Assembly: GCA_023245355.1 (NCBI GenBank)
Contig: JAHFKN010000001.1
Span: 203,528-267,527, forward strand
Direction of reading: 5' to 3'
Source of the DNA: Candidatus Gottesmanbacteria bacterium
GTDB lineage: Bacteria > Patescibacteriota > Microgenomatia > UBA10105 > UBA927
DNA length: 64,000 nucleotides
The notes beneath the pieces are model-generated. The model saw only the letters and a program-made list of their open reading frames with translations, was not told the DNA's origin and ran no database searches. Made by a program: the position numbers and the translations under genes. Positions 207 through 56,012 of this stretch are shown in pieces. Each line of letters opens with the position of its first letter. Position 1 is the first letter of the stretch.

Positions 207-830
207 GTGTGGGCAGATTCAGATCAAGGTGGACCAGTTACACCTAATAAAAAACATATGGCAAAACATAAACCAAAAAAACTGCTAACACTAACTGTTG
301 AGAAGATGCCCGAAGAATCTGAGCAGCAATATGCCGCATGGCTTTTGTACTGCGAAGCTGGGAGTCAAAAGAAGACAATGGACTATTGGGATAAGGTTGG
401 GCAAACCTTGGGTGAAGTTGGTGTGGATTTCGTCCTTCGCCTGGGTAAAAAGCCAAGTCACACAACCATAGAAAATTGGTCAAAAAAATATCGTTGGCCA
501 GAGCGCCGGGACCTACGCCTTGAGGAAGAACTTGTTGAACTAAAGGACAAAGTTGATCGCTTTAGAAAGAAAAGGAAGTATCTGGTGACAGAGCTACTCA
601 TCCAATCTGTGGCTAAGGTGCAAAAACAACTCAAGCAAGCCCCTGTATCAATTCTAGAACTGAAATACTTGTGGGAAATGCATAGGACTGAGTACGACGA
701 ATCAACCGGCAAGACCGAAGTCTCCCACCGTATAGACGAGAGTGAGCAGGTACCACCCACTGACAAGGATCAGGAACTGGGCAGAGAGATAGATACAGCC
801 ATCAAAAAATATTATGACAAACAAAGATAG
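207..830 (+). CDS. Putative terminase small subunit (called by position only; the start may be the internal Met at 255)
   Basis: A 200-aa basic/acidic protein lying directly upstream of the large terminase and overlapping it by 17 nt. No diagnostic motif was seen. Confidence 0.35.
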   Translation: MWADSDQGGPVTPNKKHMAKHKPKKLLTLTVEKMPEESEQQYAAWLLYCEAGSQKKTMDYWDKVGQTLGEVGVDFVLRLGKKPSHTTIENWSKKYRWPERRDLRLEEELVELKDKVDRFRKKRKYLVTELLIQSVAKVQKQLKQAPVSILELKYLWEMHRTEYDESTGKTEVSHRIDESEQVPPTDKDQELGREIDTAIKKYYDKQR

Positions 831-10305: not shown

Positions 10306-10333
10306 TTGACAAAAGACGAATTTTTTGTATAAT
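10306..10333 (+). promoter_or_regulatory. Sigma-70-type promoter with extended -10
   Basis: TTGACA at 10306-10311, a 16-nt spacer, then TGTATAAT with TATAAT at 10328-10333. Confidence 0.55.
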
Positions 10334-10339
10334 ATACTC

Positions 10340-10500
10340 AATACTTAGCTGTGAAGGTCTTTGGCAAGCTGGAGCTGAGCATTCTAAAAGCGGTCTGAAC
10401 TTAAGCGATTATCGATAGTACAGACAATTAGGGTGGAACCACGGGTTAAAAGAAAACTCGTCCCTTTGTATAAGAAATTATATGAAGTGACGAGTTTTTT
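10340..10500 (+). promoter_or_regulatory. T-box riboswitch leader 1 (transcription-terminating type)
   Basis: Core AATTAGGGTGGAACCACGG at ~10426-10444. A terminator follows: cucguc...gacgag stem then UUUUUUU at 10494-10500. Stem-I-like ggcaagctggagc carries a GGC (Gly) triplet. Confidence 0.6.
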
Positions 10501-10671
10501 TGTTACTTCATATAACGACAAGTTAATAGTAGCGATGAAAGGCCTGGCAACCTGGAGCTACACCAACAGTTAAAGAGGGTAAGTTTACTGGAAATCATGA
10601 CTTACCAATTAGGGTGGAACCGCGACCATATATGGCCGTCCCTAAGCGAAAGCTTATGGAGGCATATATGG
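10501..10671 (+). promoter_or_regulatory. T-box riboswitch leader 2 (candidate translational, SD-sequestering type)
   Basis: Second core AATTAGGGTGGAACCGCGACC at 10607-10627. ccatatatggcc (10626-10637) can pair with ggcatatatgg (10661-10671), burying SD GGAGG (10658-10662) and ATG 10668. No U-run follows. Confidence 0.5.
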
Positions 10672-12480: not shown

Positions 12481-13860
12481 ATGGACACAACAATGCAAAA
12501 AATCGTCAGTTTATGTAAAAGAAAAGGGTTTGTTTATCCAAACTCTGAAATTTACGGAGGAATTCAGGGGTTCTATGATTACGGACCACTAGGAGCCGAA
12601 CTACAAAATAACATCAAGCGGGTTTGGTGGAAATGGATGACCCAACTCCATGATGATGTCTATCCAATTAACGGAGCAATCATCACCCATCCGAAGGTTT
12701 GGGAAGCATCAGGACACGTTCAGAACTTCACCGATCCGTTAGTCGACTGCAAAAAATGTCATAAACGTTTCCGAGCCGATCACTTGGTTGAGGAATTCCT
12801 CACAGAGGATGCTGGAACTGCTAGTCAAAATCGCTTGGATCAGATAGCAGCAGAACTTAAATCAAGACACATTGTTTGCCCTGAGTGTGGAGGAGAGTTT
12901 ACCGAGGTCCGCAAATTCAATCTTATGGTTGAAACTTCCCTTGGGGTTGTTGAAGGCGAAAAGATGACGGCTTATCTCAAGGGGGAGGCATGCCAAACGA
13001 TCTACCTGGATTACCAGAATGTGCTTAATTCGACTAATGCCAAAATTCCTTTTGGGATATGTCAAATCGGGAAGGCTTTCAGAAATGAAATCACCCCAGG
13101 ACATTTTTTATTTCGTCAGCGTGAGTTTGAACAGTGGGATCTCCAATGGTTTACCAATCCCAAAGAAATGGATAAATGGTATGAGTACTGGAAAGCAGAA
13201 AGAATGATGTGGTATCAAAGCCTAGTGAATCATAAAGATCGTCTGCGCTTTAGACAACACGATCAAAACGAACTTGCTCATTACGCGAAAAAGGCATTCG
13301 ATATCGAGTATGAGACTCCATTTGGATGGAAAGAATGGGAAGGAATCCACTGGCGTGGAGACTGGGATTTGTCCCGTCATGGGCAATACAGTGGGAATGA
13401 TTTTACCTATACTGATCAAAAAACAGGTGATAAATTTATTCCTTGGATTGTCGAAACATCAGGAGGAGTTGATCGCACTTTCCTTTTCCTGCTCATTGAT
13501 GCTTACGATGAAGAGGTCGTAGATGGGAAAACGAGAGTGGTTCTACATTTACGACCAGACCTAGCTCCGTACAAAGTAGCGGTCTTCCCGTTGGTATCCA
13601 ACAAAGAAGATATTGTCGAAAAGGCAAAGTCAATCTACAGAGCATTAAAACCTAGCATTGCAACCATTTGGGACGATATCGGGAATGTTGGAAAGAGATA
13701 TCGAAGACAAGATGAAGTTGGTACTCCGTGGTGTGTCACGGTTGATTACCAAACACTTCAGGACGATACGATAACAGTTCGAGATCGAGACACTATGAAA
13801 CAAGAAAGAGTGAAGGTATTAGATCTGGAATACTTTTTTGCCGAGAAGTTGAAAATTTAA
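12481..13860 (+). CDS. glyQS: Glycine--tRNA ligase (dimeric class II GlyRS)
   Basis: Class II motif 2 QIGKAFRNEITPGHFLFRQREFEQWDLQWF. N-terminal GFVYPNSEIYGG...YDYGPLG is typical of alpha2 GlyRS. Confidence 0.85.
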   Translation: MDTTMQKIVSLCKRKGFVYPNSEIYGGIQGFYDYGPLGAELQNNIKRVWWKWMTQLHDDVYPINGAIITHPKVWEASGHVQNFTDPLVDCKKCHKRFRADHLVEEFLTEDAGTASQNRLDQIAAELKSRHIVCPECGGEFTEVRKFNLMVETSLGVVEGEKMTAYLKGEACQTIYLDYQNVLNSTNAKIPFGICQIGKAFRNEITPGHFLFRQREFEQWDLQWFTNPKEMDKWYEYWKAERMMWYQSLVNHKDRLRFRQHDQNELAHYAKKAFDIEYETPFGWKEWEGIHWRGDWDLSRHGQYSGNDFTYTDQKTGDKFIPWIVETSGGVDRTFLFLLIDAYDEEVVDGKTRVVLHLRPDLAPYKVAVFPLVSNKEDIVEKAKSIYRALKPSIATIWDDIGNVGKRYRRQDEVGTPWCVTVDYQTLQDDTITVRDRDTMKQERVKVLDLEYFFAEKLKI

Positions 13861-47783: not shown

Positions 47784-48449
47784 TTATAACGTGGGAGTTG
47801 CAGAGGGGGTGGAAGTCGGTCCTTTGGGCGTATGGGTGGGAGGCAGCGGGCATTCCCCGCTCCATAGCCCTCTCTTTTCCGCCACGGCCAGGCGCTGTGC
47901 TTCTACAAAAAGGGCCTGATACTTCACATCCGGCGGATACGTACTCACCTGGGCATATCCTTCACGCACCAGTGCTTCGTTTATCATCGTGTCACCGATC
48001 CAGACAAACCGCAGCAGCCGGCCGTATTTATCGCGCGCTGATACGTCTTTTTCCAGTTCTACCCGTTTGCCTTGTACAAGTTCTTTGTTTTTTGCCGAGG
48101 CTTCCTTGCCGTAACATTCGACGGGTCGGTTCGGTGCCACCGTTTCGGGGGTATTGACGCCGATATAGCGCACGATCTCTCCTCCCTCTATTTTGATCGT
48201 GTCGCCGTCTACGACACTTACGACCGTCGCAAATACCCCTCCGTGAGTGGCTGCCGGTGTCGCAGACGGACTAGCCACAGCAACCCCGGGCGTCGGCGTA
48301 TTCTGCTGAGTTGTACCGGGTTGCAGCGGATAGTACTGCGAAAACAGGGTGTATGCGGCTCCCGCCAACAGAAGAATAATCGCGCTAATCTGTACGGCCC
48401 GTTTTTTCCCGGTAAACGGGCTAAATAGTGTAACGAGGGTATTTTTCAT
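47784..48449 (-). CDS. Secreted thermonuclease (SNase-like)
   Basis: N-terminal TM/signal segment, then VVSVVDGDTIKI...RYIGVNTPE...YGRLLRFVWI, matching micrococcal nuclease motifs. Confidence 0.7.
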   Translation of the reverse strand: MKNTLVTLFSPFTGKKRAVQISAIILLLAGAAYTLFSQYYPLQPGTTQQNTPTPGVAVASPSATPAATHGGVFATVVSVVDGDTIKIEGGEIVRYIGVNTPETVAPNRPVECYGKEASAKNKELVQGKRVELEKDVSARDKYGRLLRFVWIGDTMINEALVREGYAQVSTYPPDVKYQALFVEAQRLAVAEKRGLWSGECPLPPTHTPKGPTSTPSATPTL

Positions 48450-51877: not shown

Positions 51878-52984
51878 CTACCCAATTGCAATGCTTCCTT
51901 CGTCCCGGGCGTTTCTCCGTAATGCCAGAAGCAGCCCGAACGCCACACACAACGACAATATGGAGCTCCCGCCGTAGGAGACAAACGGCAGCGTAATCCC
52001 GGTCACCGGGATAATCCCCATATTCATACCGGCGTTTATGACCACCTGTGTGATAAGCACGCCGAACAGCCCGATCGTATAAAAAAACACAAACGGACTC
52101 CCGATCGACCCGCGTAAATACGGGCGCAACAGTTGCCATAGGAGCACACCGTACAACAGAAGCAGCAGCAGTCCGCCGAAAAATCCAAGCTCCTCAACCA
52201 GGGTCGCAAATATGAAGTCCGTGTGATATTCCGGCAGAAACCGCAGATGACTTTGCGTCCCCATACCCAATCCCCGTCCGAACAGTTGCCCGCTTCCGAC
52301 GGCTATCATAGCCTGCAGCGCATTATAGCCGGCTCCCTGCGGATCTATGGCAGGATTCAGAAAGGTAAATATACGCGACTTCTGATAATCCGCCAGCGCA
52401 TGCCAAAATACCGGGAATCCCAATGTGCCGATGACTCCTCCGAGCGCAAAAAGGATAAGTGGGAACCCTCCTGCAACCATCATAGCAAGCCATGACGCCG
52501 CATAGACGATAGAGGTACCCAAATCCGGCTGACGAAATACCAGAAGGAACGGCACGGCAAACAATCCGACATGAACCGCCAGCCAACGGAAAGAACGCGG
52601 CGTGTAGGTCGCTGCTGCACGGGCAAACGCTAAGATCAGTAATGGTTTAACAATCTCCGACGGTTGCAGCTGCGCTCCTAAAATGAATATCCACCGGGAC
52701 GAGCCTCTGATAGGTTCACCGAAATAGGAAGCGATCAAAAGCAGGATAGACAACACATATCCGTACGGCGCAAACCACCACAATATGATTGCATCCAGTC
52801 CGGAAAAAAACCAAATGATTGCGCTTCCGATAAGCAGGAAGAGAAGCTGCTGCCAAAACAGAGAAGCATTCGTCGTAAGCAGCACAAACAGTCCTACCAA
52901 TCCCAACAGCAGAAGGGGCAAAAAAATCACCCAGTCTGTTTGGTGCTCTTTCCCGCGGTAACTATGTCCGTAAGGGTACCCCAT
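51878..52984 (-). CDS. SEDS-family peptidoglycan polymerase (RodA or FtsW)
   Basis: Polytopic, with ...GQLFGRGLGMGTQSHLRFLPEYHTDFIFA... conserved SEDS loops. Confidence 0.75.
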   Translation of the reverse strand: MGYPYGHSYRGKEHQTDWVIFLPLLLLGLVGLFVLLTTNASLFWQQLLFLLIGSAIIWFFSGLDAIILWWFAPYGYVLSILLLIASYFGEPIRGSSRWIFILGAQLQPSEIVKPLLILAFARAAATYTPRSFRWLAVHVGLFAVPFLLVFRQPDLGTSIVYAASWLAMMVAGGFPLILFALGGVIGTLGFPVFWHALADYQKSRIFTFLNPAIDPQGAGYNALQAMIAVGSGQLFGRGLGMGTQSHLRFLPEYHTDFIFATLVEELGFFGGLLLLLLYGVLLWQLLRPYLRGSIGSPFVFFYTIGLFGVLITQVVINAGMNMGIIPVTGITLPFVSYGGSSILSLCVAFGLLLALRRNARDEGSIAIG

Positions 52985-55794
52985 GTGATCGAATCCGCAA
53001 GCGTTTCCCGCTGTATGTCGGGAAGCAGTGCTTCCAGACTTGTTTTATACGTTTCGGGCAACACGAGAGTCACCCGCTCATCTATTCTACAGCCTTTTTC
53101 TTTCCGAAGCATTTGGATTTCGCGGATAAGCTTGCGCGCATCGCCTTTCGCTTTCAGTTCCGGCGTAATATCCGTATCAAATTCGATATACATTTCTTTA
53201 TCGGTTTTGGTAATCGTTTCCTCTACGACGTTCAACTCGTTGCCTAATACACGCAGCCAATCAGAAGACATTTCAGGATGCTCGGATACGTATACCGTCA
53301 CTTTTTGCAGCGGCTGGCGGACCGGAATACCCAGTTCCTTGCGTTTGGCGTGTCCGGCCTCGACTACTTTCCGGACAAATGCCATGCGCGCTTCCAGCTC
53401 GTCATCGACGAGGCTTTCATCTGCCTTCGGCCAATCAGCCAAATGTACGGATTCCTCGCCTGTCAGGTTTCTGTATATCTCCTCAGTGATAAACGGGATA
53501 AGCGGGGCAAGTGCTTTGGTATATTCGGTTAATACCGTCCACAATGTCTGATATGCTTCGTTTTTGTCGTCGCCCGCCGATGCACTGGGACCTACGCGGT
53601 CGCGGATACGGCGCACATACCACTGCGACAGATCGCGCATGAAATTCCACGCCTCACCCACGATCTCCGGCGTATCGTATGCTTCATACCCGTTGACTGT
53701 CATATTTCCTATACTGCGGTGCATTTTCGACAGGATCCATTTATCCATGAGGTGATTCGGTTTTGTGACAACTGTTGCCGGCTGCCACTCATCGATACTC
53801 GCATACGTCACGAAAAAGTTATAGACGTTCCAAAGCAGGAGCAGCGTGCCCCGTACCTGATTACGGTAATCAATCTCCGATATGCGGATATCTTCTCCGT
53901 GCATGACGGGAGTTCCCAGCAAATACAGACGCAATGCGTCTCCGCCGTATTTTTTCAGCATTTCTTTGGGATCCGGATAGTTTCCGTAATTTTTACTCAT
54001 CTTGCGTCCGTCCGTTCCCAAAATTACTCCCGTGACCACGACGTTTTTAAACGCCGGACGGTCATAGAGAGCGGTAGAGATGACATGCAGCACATAAAAC
54101 CACGCGCGGATCTGCCCCGTGTACTCCACAATGAAATCCGGCGGGAAAAACTCGTCGAGTTTCATGGTTGTATCAAACGGAAAATGACGCTCGGCAAACG
54201 ACGCGCTTCCCGCTTCTATCCAGCTGTCCAGCACTTCCGGTACGCGGACTGATGTCTTGCCGCATTCACGGCATGGCACTGTCACATCATCGATTTCCGG
54301 TTTATGCAGGTCGGTAATTTTTTTACCCGATGCTTGTTCCAGTTCCGCTATCGAACCCGCGACAAACCTGTGTCCGTCGGGACATTCCCATACCGGAACC
54401 GGACTTCCCCAATACCGGCTGCGCGAAATACACCAATCCGGTGCGTTTTCCAGACTCTTTAGGTATCTGCCGAGTTTGAAATGGTCCGGATACCAATGCA
54501 CTGACTCGTTGGTCGCTTTCATGCGTTCTTTGAGTCCCTGCACGTTCACATACCATGCATTTTGCGGCGCGTAGTACAGACGGGTATGGCAACGCCAGCA
54601 GGTAGGTACGGCATGCGTATACTGGTCCACGCGGTACACGAGTCCCCGCTTTTCCAGATCTTCCAGTACCATAGGATTTGCATCCAGATAAAACGTACCG
54701 GCATAGCCCGTCACTTCCGGCTTCATCACGCCCTCTTCGTCCACATGTAACACTAGCTGCACGTTTTCTTTCTGCATCACCGCCAAATCTTCTTCTCCGT
54801 AGGCTGCTATCGTGACGATTCCCGTTCCCTCATCGGCTGTGACAAACTCGCCGGGGATCACGACATGCGCATTTTTCCCCTGTTCTACGTTGTAATACGT
54901 GAAGTGCGGCACAAACGTCTTGCCGACCAGTGCACTCCCCGGAAATTCCTCCAGAATCGTGTATGGATCTGCCGTAAGCATGGCCAGCGTCGTTTTGGCG
55001 AGAATATATTTCTTGCCGTTTTGTTCTACTTTGACGTAGGTGAGCGTAGGGTGCACGGCGAGCGCCGGAGTCGCAAGCTTGTTCCACGGCGTCGTCGACC
55101 ATGCCAAAAGATAGGTATCATTTTCATCGGTAAGCTGATATTTGTATACGGCTGTCGCTTCCGTCACTTCCTTGTAATTGTCCGGATCCATCGCGACTTC
55201 GAAATTGGATATCGGCGTGACGCAGTGCGGGCAATACAGTGACACGCGCATACCTTTGTAAATCAGCTGTTTTTCGTACATTTGCTTAAACACCCACATC
55301 ACCGATTCCATATACGGCGTGTCCATCGTTTTGTATGCATGCTGGAAATCCACCCAGCGGGCAATATGGTCCACATACCATTCCCATTCCCCGGAAACGT
55401 TCTGCACATAGGCTTTGCACTCATCGATAAAGCGCTTGATGCCGACTTTTTCCTCGATGTCTTTTTTGCGCTTAATACCGAGCTTCGTTTCTACTTTGTT
55501 TTCTGCCGGCAATCCGTGACAATCCCAACCCCATACCCGGCGCACGCGGTACCCTTTCATCGTCCAGTACCGGGGGAATAAATCTTTGGGAATGCTGGAC
55601 AACAAGCTACCGTAATGCGGCAGACCTGTGATAAACGGCGGGCCGTCCAAAAACGTCCAGGTCTTGTTTTCCGGACGCATGGAGACGGATTTTTCAAAAA
55701 TCTTTTGTGTTTTCCAGTACGCGAGAATCTCCTCCTCCAGTTCGGGGAAGTTGATATTCGGTTTCACCGCGCTGAATGTATGTGTTTTTGCCAT
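52927..55794 (-). CDS. ileS: Isoleucine--tRNA ligase
   Basis: PPFITGLPHYG (HIGH region), DWCISRSRYWGSPVPVWEC, and KMSKN. Start set at Met 55794 because the track start contains the leader terminator. Confidence 0.7.
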   Translation of the reverse strand: MAKTHTFSAVKPNINFPELEEEILAYWKTQKIFEKSVSMRPENKTWTFLDGPPFITGLPHYGSLLSSIPKDLFPRYWTMKGYRVRRVWGWDCHGLPAENKVETKLGIKRKKDIEEKVGIKRFIDECKAYVQNVSGEWEWYVDHIARWVDFQHAYKTMDTPYMESVMWVFKQMYEKQLIYKGMRVSLYCPHCVTPISNFEVAMDPDNYKEVTEATAVYKYQLTDENDTYLLAWSTTPWNKLATPALAVHPTLTYVKVEQNGKKYILAKTTLAMLTADPYTILEEFPGSALVGKTFVPHFTYYNVEQGKNAHVVIPGEFVTADEGTGIVTIAAYGEEDLAVMQKENVQLVLHVDEEGVMKPEVTGYAGTFYLDANPMVLEDLEKRGLVYRVDQYTHAVPTCWRCHTRLYYAPQNAWYVNVQGLKERMKATNESVHWYPDHFKLGRYLKSLENAPDWCISRSRYWGSPVPVWECPDGHRFVAGSIAELEQASGKKITDLHKPEIDDVTVPCRECGKTSVRVPEVLDSWIEAGSASFAERHFPFDTTMKLDEFFPPDFIVEYTGQIRAWFYVLHVISTALYDRPAFKNVVVTGVILGTDGRKMSKNYGNYPDPKEMLKKYGGDALRLYLLGTPVMHGEDIRISEIDYRNQVRGTLLLLWNVYNFFVTYASIDEWQPATVVTKPNHLMDKWILSKMHRSIGNMTVNGYEAYDTPEIVGEAWNFMRDLSQWYVRRIRDRVGPSASAGDDKNEAYQTLWTVLTEYTKALAPLIPFITEEIYRNLTGEESVHLADWPKADESLVDDELEARMAFVRKVVEAGHAKRKELGIPVRQPLQKVTVYVSEHPEMSSDWLRVLGNELNVVEETITKTDKEMYIEFDTDITPELKAKGDARKLIREIQMLRKEKGCRIDERVTLVLPETYKTSLEALLPDIQRETLADSITWGTLTDIVTAGKSTKQTG

Positions 55795-55995
55795 AAAAAA
55801 ACCGTTCTCCATTTCAGTATATACCGAAAGGACGAACGGATGTTCGTGGTACCACCTTCGTTGCTTCTTGATTACTGCTGTTACGGGCTTACCCGGGGAA
55901 TTCTACTCTCCTTGCTTAGGATTTCTTTTCCCAGCCTGTTCCGATTCTATCGGAACCTCCCCGCTGATAACGGGGTTTTACGACGCTTCTACAAA
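55795..55995 (-). promoter_or_regulatory. T-box riboswitch leader of ileS, short Stem I with an AUC specifier
   Basis: Minus-strand RNA has hairpin CCCCGUUAUCAGCGGGG (AUC then A in the loop), T-box-like AACGAAGGUGGUACCACGAAC, a terminator (+55801-55840) and UUUUUUU (+55794-55800). Confidence 0.5.
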
Positions 55996-55998
55996 CAG

Positions 55999-56012
55999 TA
56001 GTATACCACAAT
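55999..56012 (-). promoter_or_regulatory. Extended -10 promoter for the ileS leader
   Basis: Minus-strand TGTGGTATACT (TGnTATACT). Confidence 0.4.

Follow-up and report, generated by a model that had tools for sequence, protein, structure and literature searches.

A putative ileS T-box leader in a Candidate Phyla Radiation bacterium that joins an ultrashort, apical-specifier Stem I to an intrinsic terminator

Results

The ileS leader of the window

We analyzed the leader of ileS, the gene encoding isoleucyl-tRNA synthetase (IleRS), in a 64,000-nucleotide (nt) stretch of contig JAHFKN010000001.1 from a Candidatus Gottesmanbacteria genome; "the window" denotes that whole stretch, and all coordinates are those of the window. 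An earlier reading made from the letters alone (the sequence-only reading) had proposed that ileS is preceded on the minus strand by a T-box leader with a short Stem I, a specifier in the terminal loop of that stem, and an intrinsic terminator that runs into the annotated start of the gene. The leader elements were read directly from the minus strand, from 56010 down to 55790. They are listed below from 5' to 3', with the means of recognition in brackets; R1 is a covariance model of related leaders that is described in the following section.

56000-56010, minus strand: extended -10 element TGTGGTATACT, that is TG-n-TATACT (sequence reading)
55985-55987, minus strand: 5' strand AGC of the basal helix P0, below the kink-turn (K-turn) position, pairing with GCU 55935-55933 (R1 alignment)
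55959-55975, minus strand: ultrashort Stem I, CCCCG-UUAUCAG-CGGGG, with the specifier in its apical loop (sequence reading and folding)
55938-55956, minus strand: hairpin HP2, GUUCCGAU-AGA-AUCGGAAC, a perfect helix of 8 base pairs (bp) lying between Stem I and the 3' strand of P0 (sequence reading)
55933-55935, minus strand: 3' strand GCU of P0 (R1 alignment and covariation)
55896-55932, minus strand: Stem II with its S-turn, GGGAA / AAGAAA / UCCU-AAGCA-AGGA / GAGUAGAA / UUCCC (R1 alignment)
55884-55895, minus strand: Stem IIA hairpin CGGG-UAAG-CCCG, followed by the conserved UAACAGCAGUAAU of the F-box region (Rfam and R1)
55860-55883, minus strand: single-stranded 24-nt linker UAACAGCAGUAAUCAAGAAGCAAC (comparative alignments)
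55827-55859, minus strand: T-box sequence and antiterminator, GAAGG-UGGUACC-ACGAACAUCCGUUCGU-CCUUU (Rfam alignment and minimum-energy fold)
55802-55839, minus strand: putative terminator and sequestrator hairpin, 5' arm CCGUUCGUCCUUUC, 3' arm GAAAUGGAGAACGG (RNAfold, -18.1 kcal/mol)
55807-55810, minus strand: Shine-Dalgarno (SD) sequence GGAG within the 3' arm of that hairpin, with the AUG 12 nt further on (sequence reading)
55795-55801, minus strand: U7 between the hairpin and the start codon, adjoining both (sequence reading)
52927-55794, minus strand: ileS, 955 amino acids (aa), a type-2-like IleRS beginning MAKTHTF (TIGR00392, 759 bits)

The extended -10 element, the 5-bp hairpin with AUC-A, the T-box-like sequence with its core intact and the hairpin with U7 (55839-55795) are all where the sequence-only reading had placed them, and to the last of these our analysis adds a candidate role as SD sequestrator. 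HP2, Stem II with its S-turn together with Stem IIA, the lack of a Stem III and the GGAG in the 3' arm had no place in that reading. The assignment of the leader to ileS likewise stands, with the downstream product matching TIGR00392 at 759 bits against a cut-off of 621. The specifier AUC occupies 55968-55966, with a purine, A, next at 55965, in an apical loop of 7 nt, or of 5 nt if a U-G pair closes. The antiterminator is composed of helices A1 (GAAGG/CCUUU) and A2 (ACGAAC-AUCC-GUUCGU) with the 7-nt bulge UGGUACC, the UGGU of which lies at 55854-55851.

The S-turn strands GAAGAA and AGUAGAA are conserved across the leader alignments. There is no Stem III hairpin in the 24 nt at 55883-55860 of the window leader; in the alignments the Stem III position holds a hairpin in actinobacterial and some lower-GC leaders, and about 4 nt in the window and many relatives. 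Nor did the conserved AGCWG that follows Stem IIA yield a consistent pairing partner, as a IIB pseudoknot would need. The minimum-energy fold of the whole leader paired the 5' end with the U-run and did not recover Stem II. We judged it a folding artifact and therefore relied on comparative structure for the anatomy.

Covariance models place the leader among short-Stem-I T-boxes

The Rfam T-box model RF00230 matches window positions 55941-55825 at 33.5 bits, with an E-value of 1.6e-4 in a 10-kb search and of 1e-3 in a search of the whole window. A T-box match is thus obtained, as the sequence-only reading anticipated, but far from the gathering score of 93 bits and with Stem I misaligned onto Stem II: the T-box/antiterminator half is aligned at high posterior probability, 71 Stem I model positions are deleted, and those that remain are placed wrongly on the 5' strand of Stem II. 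We rejected this alignment as a basis for the 5' anatomy. At the gathering threshold, the Rfam scan of the whole window returned two tRNAs only and no T-box. Two more matches to GGTGGNACC in the window (749-757 and 48133-48141) were rejected; they have no T-box leader context and lie within longer open sequence.

The model R1 was built from eight other leaders, five of them lower-GC and three GC-rich actinobacterial-type, with the window excluded. A first MAFFT alignment (alignment A1, not the helix of that name) put Stem I out of register, and the seed was rebuilt from leaders of identical geometry. R1 scores window positions 55989-55848 at 81 bits (E 2.8e-15). In the metagenome set described below, it gives canonical long-Stem-I T-boxes 25-47 bits versus 54-117 for short-Stem-I leaders, and by its R1 score the window leader falls in the short-Stem-I group.

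Relatives of the leader and the host

Relatives were sought with the IleRS N terminus against one genome per species, which gave 80 loci at 53-88% identity (loci of this and the following search carry L numbers). The best are metagenome-assembled genomes (MAGs) of Gottesman-, Levy-, Davies-, Curtiss- and Roizmanbacteria, and the named relatives as a whole are Candidatus Gottesman-, Levy-, Davies-, Curtiss-, Roizman-, Woese-, Beckwith- and Pacebacteria or "Patescibacteria group", with genomes of about 1 Mb. By these affinities the host is a Microgenomates-group bacterium of the Candidate Phyla Radiation (CPR). Approximately 40 MAG records with an IleRS that clusters with Microgenomates are titled "uncultured Gammaproteobacteria" or "uncultured Pseudomonadales", which are probably placeholder or wrong labels.

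A metagenome search with the pattern GGTAAGCCYGT-N15-45-GGTGGTACC gave 120 further loci: canonical T-boxes, GC-rich actinobacterial-type ileS leaders, intermediate-Stem-I ileS leaders, and about 35 lower-GC short-Stem-I leaders. The intermediate-Stem-I ileS leaders (L086, L088, L096, L107, L118, L141, L145, L150, L183 and L197) look like the known class IV type.

Three relatives of the window locus have leaders of another composition. The Candidatus Gottesmanbacteria ileS leader L081 (1867-2003) has a discriminator, ACGAACAUCCGUUCGUCCUUUC, identical to that of the window over 22 nt, and a short Stem I, GGG-ACUCAUCA-CCC, without Stem II and IIA, so that the basal helix leads directly into the linker; R1 gives it 30.7 bits. 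The T-box sequence is absent from L006 (1700-2003) and L062 (1870-2003), the IleRS proteins of which are 76% and 73% identical to that of the window. L006 retains a terminator-like hairpin, CCGCUCGUCCUUUAU...GGAGAGCGG-UUUU, ahead of the AUG, and the two loci have another hairpin, GCCUACGAGGAnUnUCCUUGUAGG, in common. They may represent a different ileS leader or a T-box remnant.

Covariation and promoter position support an ultrashort Stem I

Covariation was assessed in an R1-guided alignment of 54 short-Stem-I leaders. In this alignment, which is fitted to the model, standard pairs fill 97.4% of pair cells, versus at most 50% when the partners are slid by 1-3 columns. Compensatory cells, in which both sides have changed, number 212, and none of 500 shuffles matches the observed values. 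Every pair shows compensatory change in P0 (3/3), Stem I (4/4) and lower Stem II (5/5); Stem IIA is invariant in the metagenome set because the search pattern requires it. A conserved Stem I of greater length, the outcome that the sequence-only reading had itself raised against its proposal, emerged in none of the 54 leaders.

The loop sequence NNAUCR is kept in all the ileS relatives while the stem sequence varies, with UCCCG/CGGGA in L003, UCCCGG/CCGGGA in L076, AUCUUG/CAAGAU in L074, UUCCG/CGGAA in L008, CUCGG/CCGAG in L082, GGAG/CUCC in L196 and CCGG/CCGG in actinobacterial-type leaders. The geometry NNC-N-UUGA-N-[4 bp]-[6-nt loop NNAUCR]-[4 bp]-N-GA-GNN is common to lower-GC and actinobacterial-type leaders. 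The Stem I of the window was itself left unaligned by R1, because HP2 was taken as a 45-nt insertion. That the first hairpin, HP1, is Stem I follows from its position and loop sequence and from L003, which shares the HP1/HP2 layout.

HP2 is homologous in L003 and absent from L076, L074 and L135. We also considered HP2 as the specifier hairpin, with its top 2 bp open, a loop AUAGAAU and the triplet AGA, and rejected it on the grounds that HP2 is absent from most relatives and the AUC hairpin HP1 is universal. Unrelated extra hairpins occupy the HP2 site, between Stem I and the 3' strand of P0, in L082, L120, L125, L138, L177 and L007. Leaders with an extra hairpin have UAAAA, UUAAG or UAUAU in place of the UUGA...GA K-turn consensus, which suggests a recurrent three-way junction standing in for the K-turn.

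Of the 42 lower-GC leaders, 37 have a -10 box (at least five of six positions) no more than 60 nt upstream of the structure, and mostly 5-16 nt from it. In the window the specifier hairpin comes about 20 nt after the -10 box, the extended -10 TGTGGTATACT is also conserved in the closest relative, L003, and no -35 element accompanies the promoter. Transcription would start around 55993-55990. Because the -10 boxes sit just upstream of the structure, there is no room for a long Stem I. A hidden long Stem I is ruled out by the promoter position, the intergenic length and the alignment of the 54 relatives; the rest of the intergenic DNA of the window holds a divergent promoter-like site and a 108-aa open reading frame (ORF). 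The short Stem I with a terminal-loop specifier that the sequence-only reading had described is thus upheld.

The apical triplet matches the downstream gene

Downstream genes were identified by NCBIfam families, and the apical triplets of the leaders correspond to them as follows.

AUC: IleRS, in the window (759 bits), L120 and L190
GUC: ValRS, in L117 and L169
GCC: AlaRS, in L100
CGC: ArgRS, in L142
UGG: TrpRS, in L162
AAC, an Asn codon: bacterial-type AspRS, in L157, consistent only if the enzyme also charges tRNA-Asn

All the ileS leaders have AUC and a purine in the apical loop. The match of triplet and gene in the relatives lends independent support to the reading of AUC as the specifier, and by the same comparison the short-Stem-I architecture is not restricted to ileS. 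Leaders of genes other than ileS with an apical specifier, mostly with terminators, are L100, L117, L126, L142, L157, L162, L169, L171 and L193.

Bacterial tRNA-Ile normally carries A73, and the UGGU bulge of the window leader predicts the discriminator A73 in its cognate tRNA. No tRNA-Ile(GAU) gene is present in the window or in 53 fetched loci, the only tRNA-Ile gene found being tRNA-Ile(UAU) in L162.

The expression platform: a hairpin, a U-run and an overlapping Shine-Dalgarno sequence

In RNAfold the competing hairpin has -18.1 kcal/mol versus -8.0 kcal/mol for the antiterminator. The two are mutually exclusive, in agreement with the alternative folds that the sequence-only reading had envisaged: the 5' arm of the hairpin, from 55839, reuses the 3' strands of A2 and A1, that is the last 13 nt of the antiterminator. 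Because the competing hairpin is the stronger, the default state would be "off", as in other T-boxes. Its G+C-rich stem, with basal CCG/CGG, stands directly before the U-tract, as in an intrinsic terminator. A consensus promoter and terminator scan of the window missed the -10 box, for want of a -35 element, and the terminator, because of its bulged stem.

In 31 of the 42 lower-GC leaders, a U-run comes after a hairpin (-6 kcal/mol or lower) that overlaps the antiterminator on its 3' strand. Under a definition blind to the U-run, which takes the minimum-energy helix using the 3' strand of A1, at least five U's occur in the next 8 nt in 23 of 40. None of 11 GC-rich actinobacterial-type leaders has a U-run under either definition; the platform of these leaders is an SD sequestrator. 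Changes in the terminator arms go along with changes in A2 (CCGUUC/GAACGG, CCGCUC/GAGCGG, CUCACCC/GGGUGAG, CCAUCC/GGAUGG and CUCGCCC/GGCGAGG). RNAalifold detected no structure in 15 terminator segments, the arms of which had been left unaligned by MAFFT, and per-sequence folding was used instead. Hairpin and U-run lie 9-41 nt upstream of the start codon in L074, L082, L094, L106 and others (about 27-41 nt ahead of a separate start codon in L074 and L082), a position that only a transcription terminator would explain.

In the window the SD sequence GGAG is unpaired with a probability of about 0 when the full leader is folded (RNAfold). The AUG directly follows the U-run in the window and in L003, L007, L076, L085, L100, L101, L135, L161, L191 and L196, and in the 3' arm of the same 11 leaders GGAG or GAGG lies 7-13 nt before the AUG. 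To judge from this layout, a single hairpin is probably both terminator and SD sequestrator, with termination and sequestration coupled.

An alternative is that the leader is a purely translational T-box like those of Actinobacteria, in which the hairpin would only sequester the SD sequence, the U7 would be a spacer or translation enhancer, and no termination would take place. The decoding module is that of known translational T-boxes, the SD sequence in the 3' arm is fully paired in the default fold, and, with the AUG abutting the U-run, terminated and translatable RNAs would differ by a few nt. The short Stem I has been argued to suit slow, equilibrium sensing (PMC7583486), and L123, L182 and the second glycine T-box of the window (see below) have sequestrators without U-runs. 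Against this, a GC-rich hairpin of -18 kcal/mol followed by seven U's is an intrinsic terminator by definition, and U7 at precisely that site is improbable by chance at about 47% GC. A U-run after the competing hairpin is seen in 23-31 of about 40 lower-GC leaders versus none of the 11 actinobacterial ones, and in L074, L082, L094, L106 and others the distant start codon has its own SD sequence, so that the hairpin would sequester nothing. We therefore regard exclusively translational action as unlikely.

The opposite simplification is a purely transcriptional attenuator, in which the SD overlap is a product of genome compaction and the antiterminator persists in the read-through transcript or ribosomes open the hairpin. 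The logic of a terminator is self-sufficient, relatives with a separate downstream SD sequence do without the overlap, and short intergenic space is a feature of the small CPR genomes. The layout of GGAG or GAGG, U-run and AUG recurs, however, in 11 leaders with differing stems and ahead of three genes (ileS, alaS in L100 and a short ORF in L085), and the terminator is 10 kcal/mol stronger than the antiterminator, so that tRNA-free read-through RNA should refold and hide the SD sequence. A transcriptional attenuator without a translational component is, to our mind, somewhat less probable still than the translational alternative, and we favor a terminator that also hides the SD sequence.

The start codon of ileS and the downstream gene

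The public gene call starts ileS at ATG 55812 (MENGFFMAKTHTF...), inside the 3' arm of the putative terminator; the resulting 961-aa protein is in the public record, with an exact copy on an ENA metagenome contig of 114.8 kb, and a 955-aa version is not. The six extra codons, MENGFF, come from the arm and the U-run (GGU UUU UUU), which, as the sequence-only reading had pointed out, cover this ATG. Homologs start at the AUG after the U-run, with MVKKHTFAPV in L003, MGKKHTFAPV in L135, MGRFKPV in L101 and MAFKQV in L007, and the MENGFF extension is not conserved in homologs. An in-frame stop (AUG UAA) precedes the AUG in L003 and L135, the two checked upstream, so that no upstream extension is possible there. 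The start at 55812 is likely an artifact and Met 55794 likely the ileS start, as had been proposed from the letters of the window. Public calls at L001 and L002 also start ileS inside the 3' arm of the terminator, and a comparable 5' extension of the ORF is seen in L008, L094 and L196.

The 3' end of ileS overlaps the start of an FtsW/RodA-family gene (51878-52984, minus strand) by 58 nt, 52927-52984. Because of this overlap the two genes are probably cotranscribed and would share T-box control.

Tandem glycine T-boxes in the same window

The plus strand of the window carries tandem glycine T-boxes at 10326-10670, ahead of glyA (serine hydroxymethyltransferase, ATG 10668, NF000586, 380 bits), a 180-aa ORF and glyS (GlyRS, 12481-13860, NF003211, 620 bits). 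Both have a K-turn-like frame, AGC-(U)GUGA/GAUGA ... GGA-GCU, that encloses a very short Stem I whose loop contains GGC-A; both also have a UGGA bulge and a Stem III, and in both Stem II is absent. The first ends in a terminator, ACUCGUC...GACGAGU plus U7, at about 10456-10501, and the second in a GGAGG sequestrator, CCUAAGC-GAAA-GCUUAUGG, at 10641-10659, without a U-run. Their Rfam scores are 40.2 and 46.6 bits, under the gathering score of 93. According to the literature, a short Stem I without Stem II is not expected to bind tRNA appreciably.

Discussion

Relation to known T-box classes

The decoding half of the ileS leader is, by comparison of sequence and structure, clearly homologous to that of the ultrashort class III ileS T-boxes of Actinobacteria (M. 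tuberculosis, M. smegmatis and Nocardia farcinica), for which the co-crystal structures 6UFG and 6UFM are available (cited in PMC7583486 and PMC10482949). They precede the same gene, a type-2-like ileS, with IleRS proteins that are 41% identical, and have in common the basal helix, a Stem I of 4-6 bp, an apical loop of 5-7 nt with AUC and a purine, a Stem II with the S-turn strands GAAGAA and AGUAGAA, the CGGGUAAGCCCGU Stem IIA element and the UGGUACC bulge. One covariance model captures the actinobacterial and the lower-GC groups. In contrast to class III, the platform of the window leader is a hairpin with U7 resembling an intrinsic terminator and not a sequestrator alone, Stem III is missing, a three-way junction of P0, Stem I and HP2 replaces the K-turn (UUGA...GA), and the host is a CPR bacterium of the Microgenomates group and not an actinobacterium. 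Class III has been described as confined to ileS (10.1101/2023.02.28.530422), whereas the lower-GC relatives of the window leader serve Val, Ala, Arg, Asn/Asp and Trp genes.

With the canonical class I T-boxes of the B. subtilis tyrS type, represented by RF00230, the leader shares the T-box sequence, an antiterminator with a 7-nt UGGN bulge, a stronger and mutually exclusive hairpin with a U-run, the Stem II S-turn, Stem IIA and the F-box, a gene-matching specifier followed by a purine, and an aminoacyl-tRNA synthetase gene as the apparent target. It lacks the Stem I of about 70-80 nt with its specifier internal loop, AG bulge and distal loop, the double T-loop that binds the tRNA elbow. Its specifier is in a terminal loop, it has no Stem III, its terminator overlaps the SD sequence and abuts the AUG, and it scores below the gathering threshold. 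Class IV, the Actinomyces odontolyticus type (PMC10482949), resembles the window leader in preceding ileS, in lacking an elbow-binding motif and in depending on Stem II. Metagenome leaders of this kind (L086, L088, L096, L141 and others) contain CCGG-CUACAUCAGUAG-GAAUCA-CCGG. In class IV, unlike the window leader, Stem I is longer and the specifier occupies a side bulge that separates two of its helices; the platform is a sequestrator that no U-run follows.

The sequence-only reading had called the pairing of this geometry with an intrinsic terminator unusual, and the literature consulted bears it out. In reviews, translational control in Actinobacteria goes with a short Stem I and transcriptional control with a long one (PMC7583486), classes III and IV are said to regulate "mostly" translation initiation (PMC10482949), and a 2023 preprint treats ultrashort T-boxes as translational ileS elements without exception (10.1101/2023.02.28.530422). 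In TBDB the translational-class model was searched in Actinobacteria only (PMC7778990). Full-text searches combining T-box with Patescibacteria, Candidate Phyla Radiation, Saccharibacteria or metagenomes returned nothing relevant. The combination of a short Stem I and a terminator is not described in the literature searched, which excluded the paper of Sherwood et al. from 2015, the abstract of which reportedly calls "many", not all, atypical ileS leaders translational, and an earlier actinobacterial precedent may exist. What appears to be new is a class-III-type decoding module coupled to a terminator that would also sequester the SD sequence, in a CPR bacterium. The geometry is, by its occurrence in the leaders collected here, no one-off and is part of a large family that standard tools do not annotate.

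A model for the ileS leader

We consider it probable that the leader is a functional T-box that senses tRNA-Ile and controls ileS by means of an ultrashort, class-III-type decoding module and an intrinsic terminator. In this model, transcription would begin a few nt upstream of the short basal helix. The GAU anticodon of tRNA-Ile would pair with AUC in the apical loop of the 5-bp Stem I, and contact with the tRNA elbow would be impossible. The 3' end of an uncharged tRNA (A73-C-C-A) would then pair with the bulge UGGU and stabilize the weak antiterminator of -8 kcal/mol. Without uncharged tRNA, the 3' strands of the antiterminator would refold into the hairpin of -18 kcal/mol that precedes U7, and RNA polymerase would stop just before the start codon. 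With GGAG in the 3' arm of the hairpin and the U-tract as the spacer to the AUG, a read-through transcript that refolded would also be untranslatable.

Several observations count against this model. The Rfam score is far under the gathering threshold. The leader has no Stem III, a stem that belongs to the canonical core for sensing aminoacylation, and it carries GUAAAA...AG and an additional hairpin in place of the K-turn consensus (UGA...GA). The leader is patchy in its distribution, occurring at 7 of the 80 related ileS loci (L003, L007, L008, L074, L076, L081 and L082). The covariation rests on an alignment fitted to the model, in which the Stem I of the window is the part left out, and the match of UGGU to A73 is a prediction only, given the lack of a tRNA-Ile(GAU) gene in the window and fetched loci. 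The spacing of 12 nt between SD sequence and AUG is long. Finally, transcriptional T-boxes have been said to need an elbow-binding distal Stem I for fast cotranscriptional capture of tRNA (PMC7583486), which argues against efficient kinetic control in the window leader.

Taken to their end, some of these observations would make the leader a former T-box in decay that has lost tRNA binding, or a chance resemblance. The absence of a distal Stem I, of Stem III and of the K-turn consensus, the score under the Rfam threshold and the patchiness among close relatives would fit such an origin, as would the loss of the whole Stem II domain in L081 and of the T-box sequence, with the hairpin kept, in L006. 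Decay or chance would not account for the presence and conservation of every tRNA-contacting element of the solved class III complexes, for helices that are each maintained by compensatory changes, for a specifier that fits the gene in all cases examined, or for a terminator arm that covaries with helix A2. We consider a relic or chance resemblance highly improbable, and far more so than a T-box restricted to either translation or transcription. The functional, terminator-coupled ileS T-box is the interpretation that we retain.

Significance for the CPR and for T-boxes

On balance we lean, with less assurance than for the window leader itself, toward a large CPR/Patescibacteria-like family of minimal T-boxes, in which the ultrashort Stem I with an apical specifier would be a general decoder (for Ile, Val, Ala, Arg, Asn/Asp, Trp and Gly) that is routinely coupled to a terminator, often with the SD sequence in the arm and the AUG after the U-tract. 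If this is true, the generalization that ultrashort T-boxes are translational, confined to ileS and actinobacterial fails, as does the generalization that transcriptional T-boxes need contact with the tRNA elbow. Cotranscriptional sensing of tRNA would then be workable through contacts with the anticodon and the 3' end alone. The puzzle is how the decision could be made during transcription without the elbow contact that is thought to speed the capture of tRNA. T-boxes are a model system for the recognition of one folded RNA by another, and a family that joins a stripped-down reader to a terminator would offer a direct test of the need for the elbow contact in kinetic control.

The setting is one of organisms with very small genomes and few known regulators. 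T-box regulation in the CPR would be invisible to standard annotation, because the three T-boxes of the window score 33-47 bits against the gathering score of 93, and gene callers begin ileS within the terminator. With a length of about 190 nt or less and lacking Stem III, these leaders would be among the smallest T-boxes and could suit structural work and engineering.

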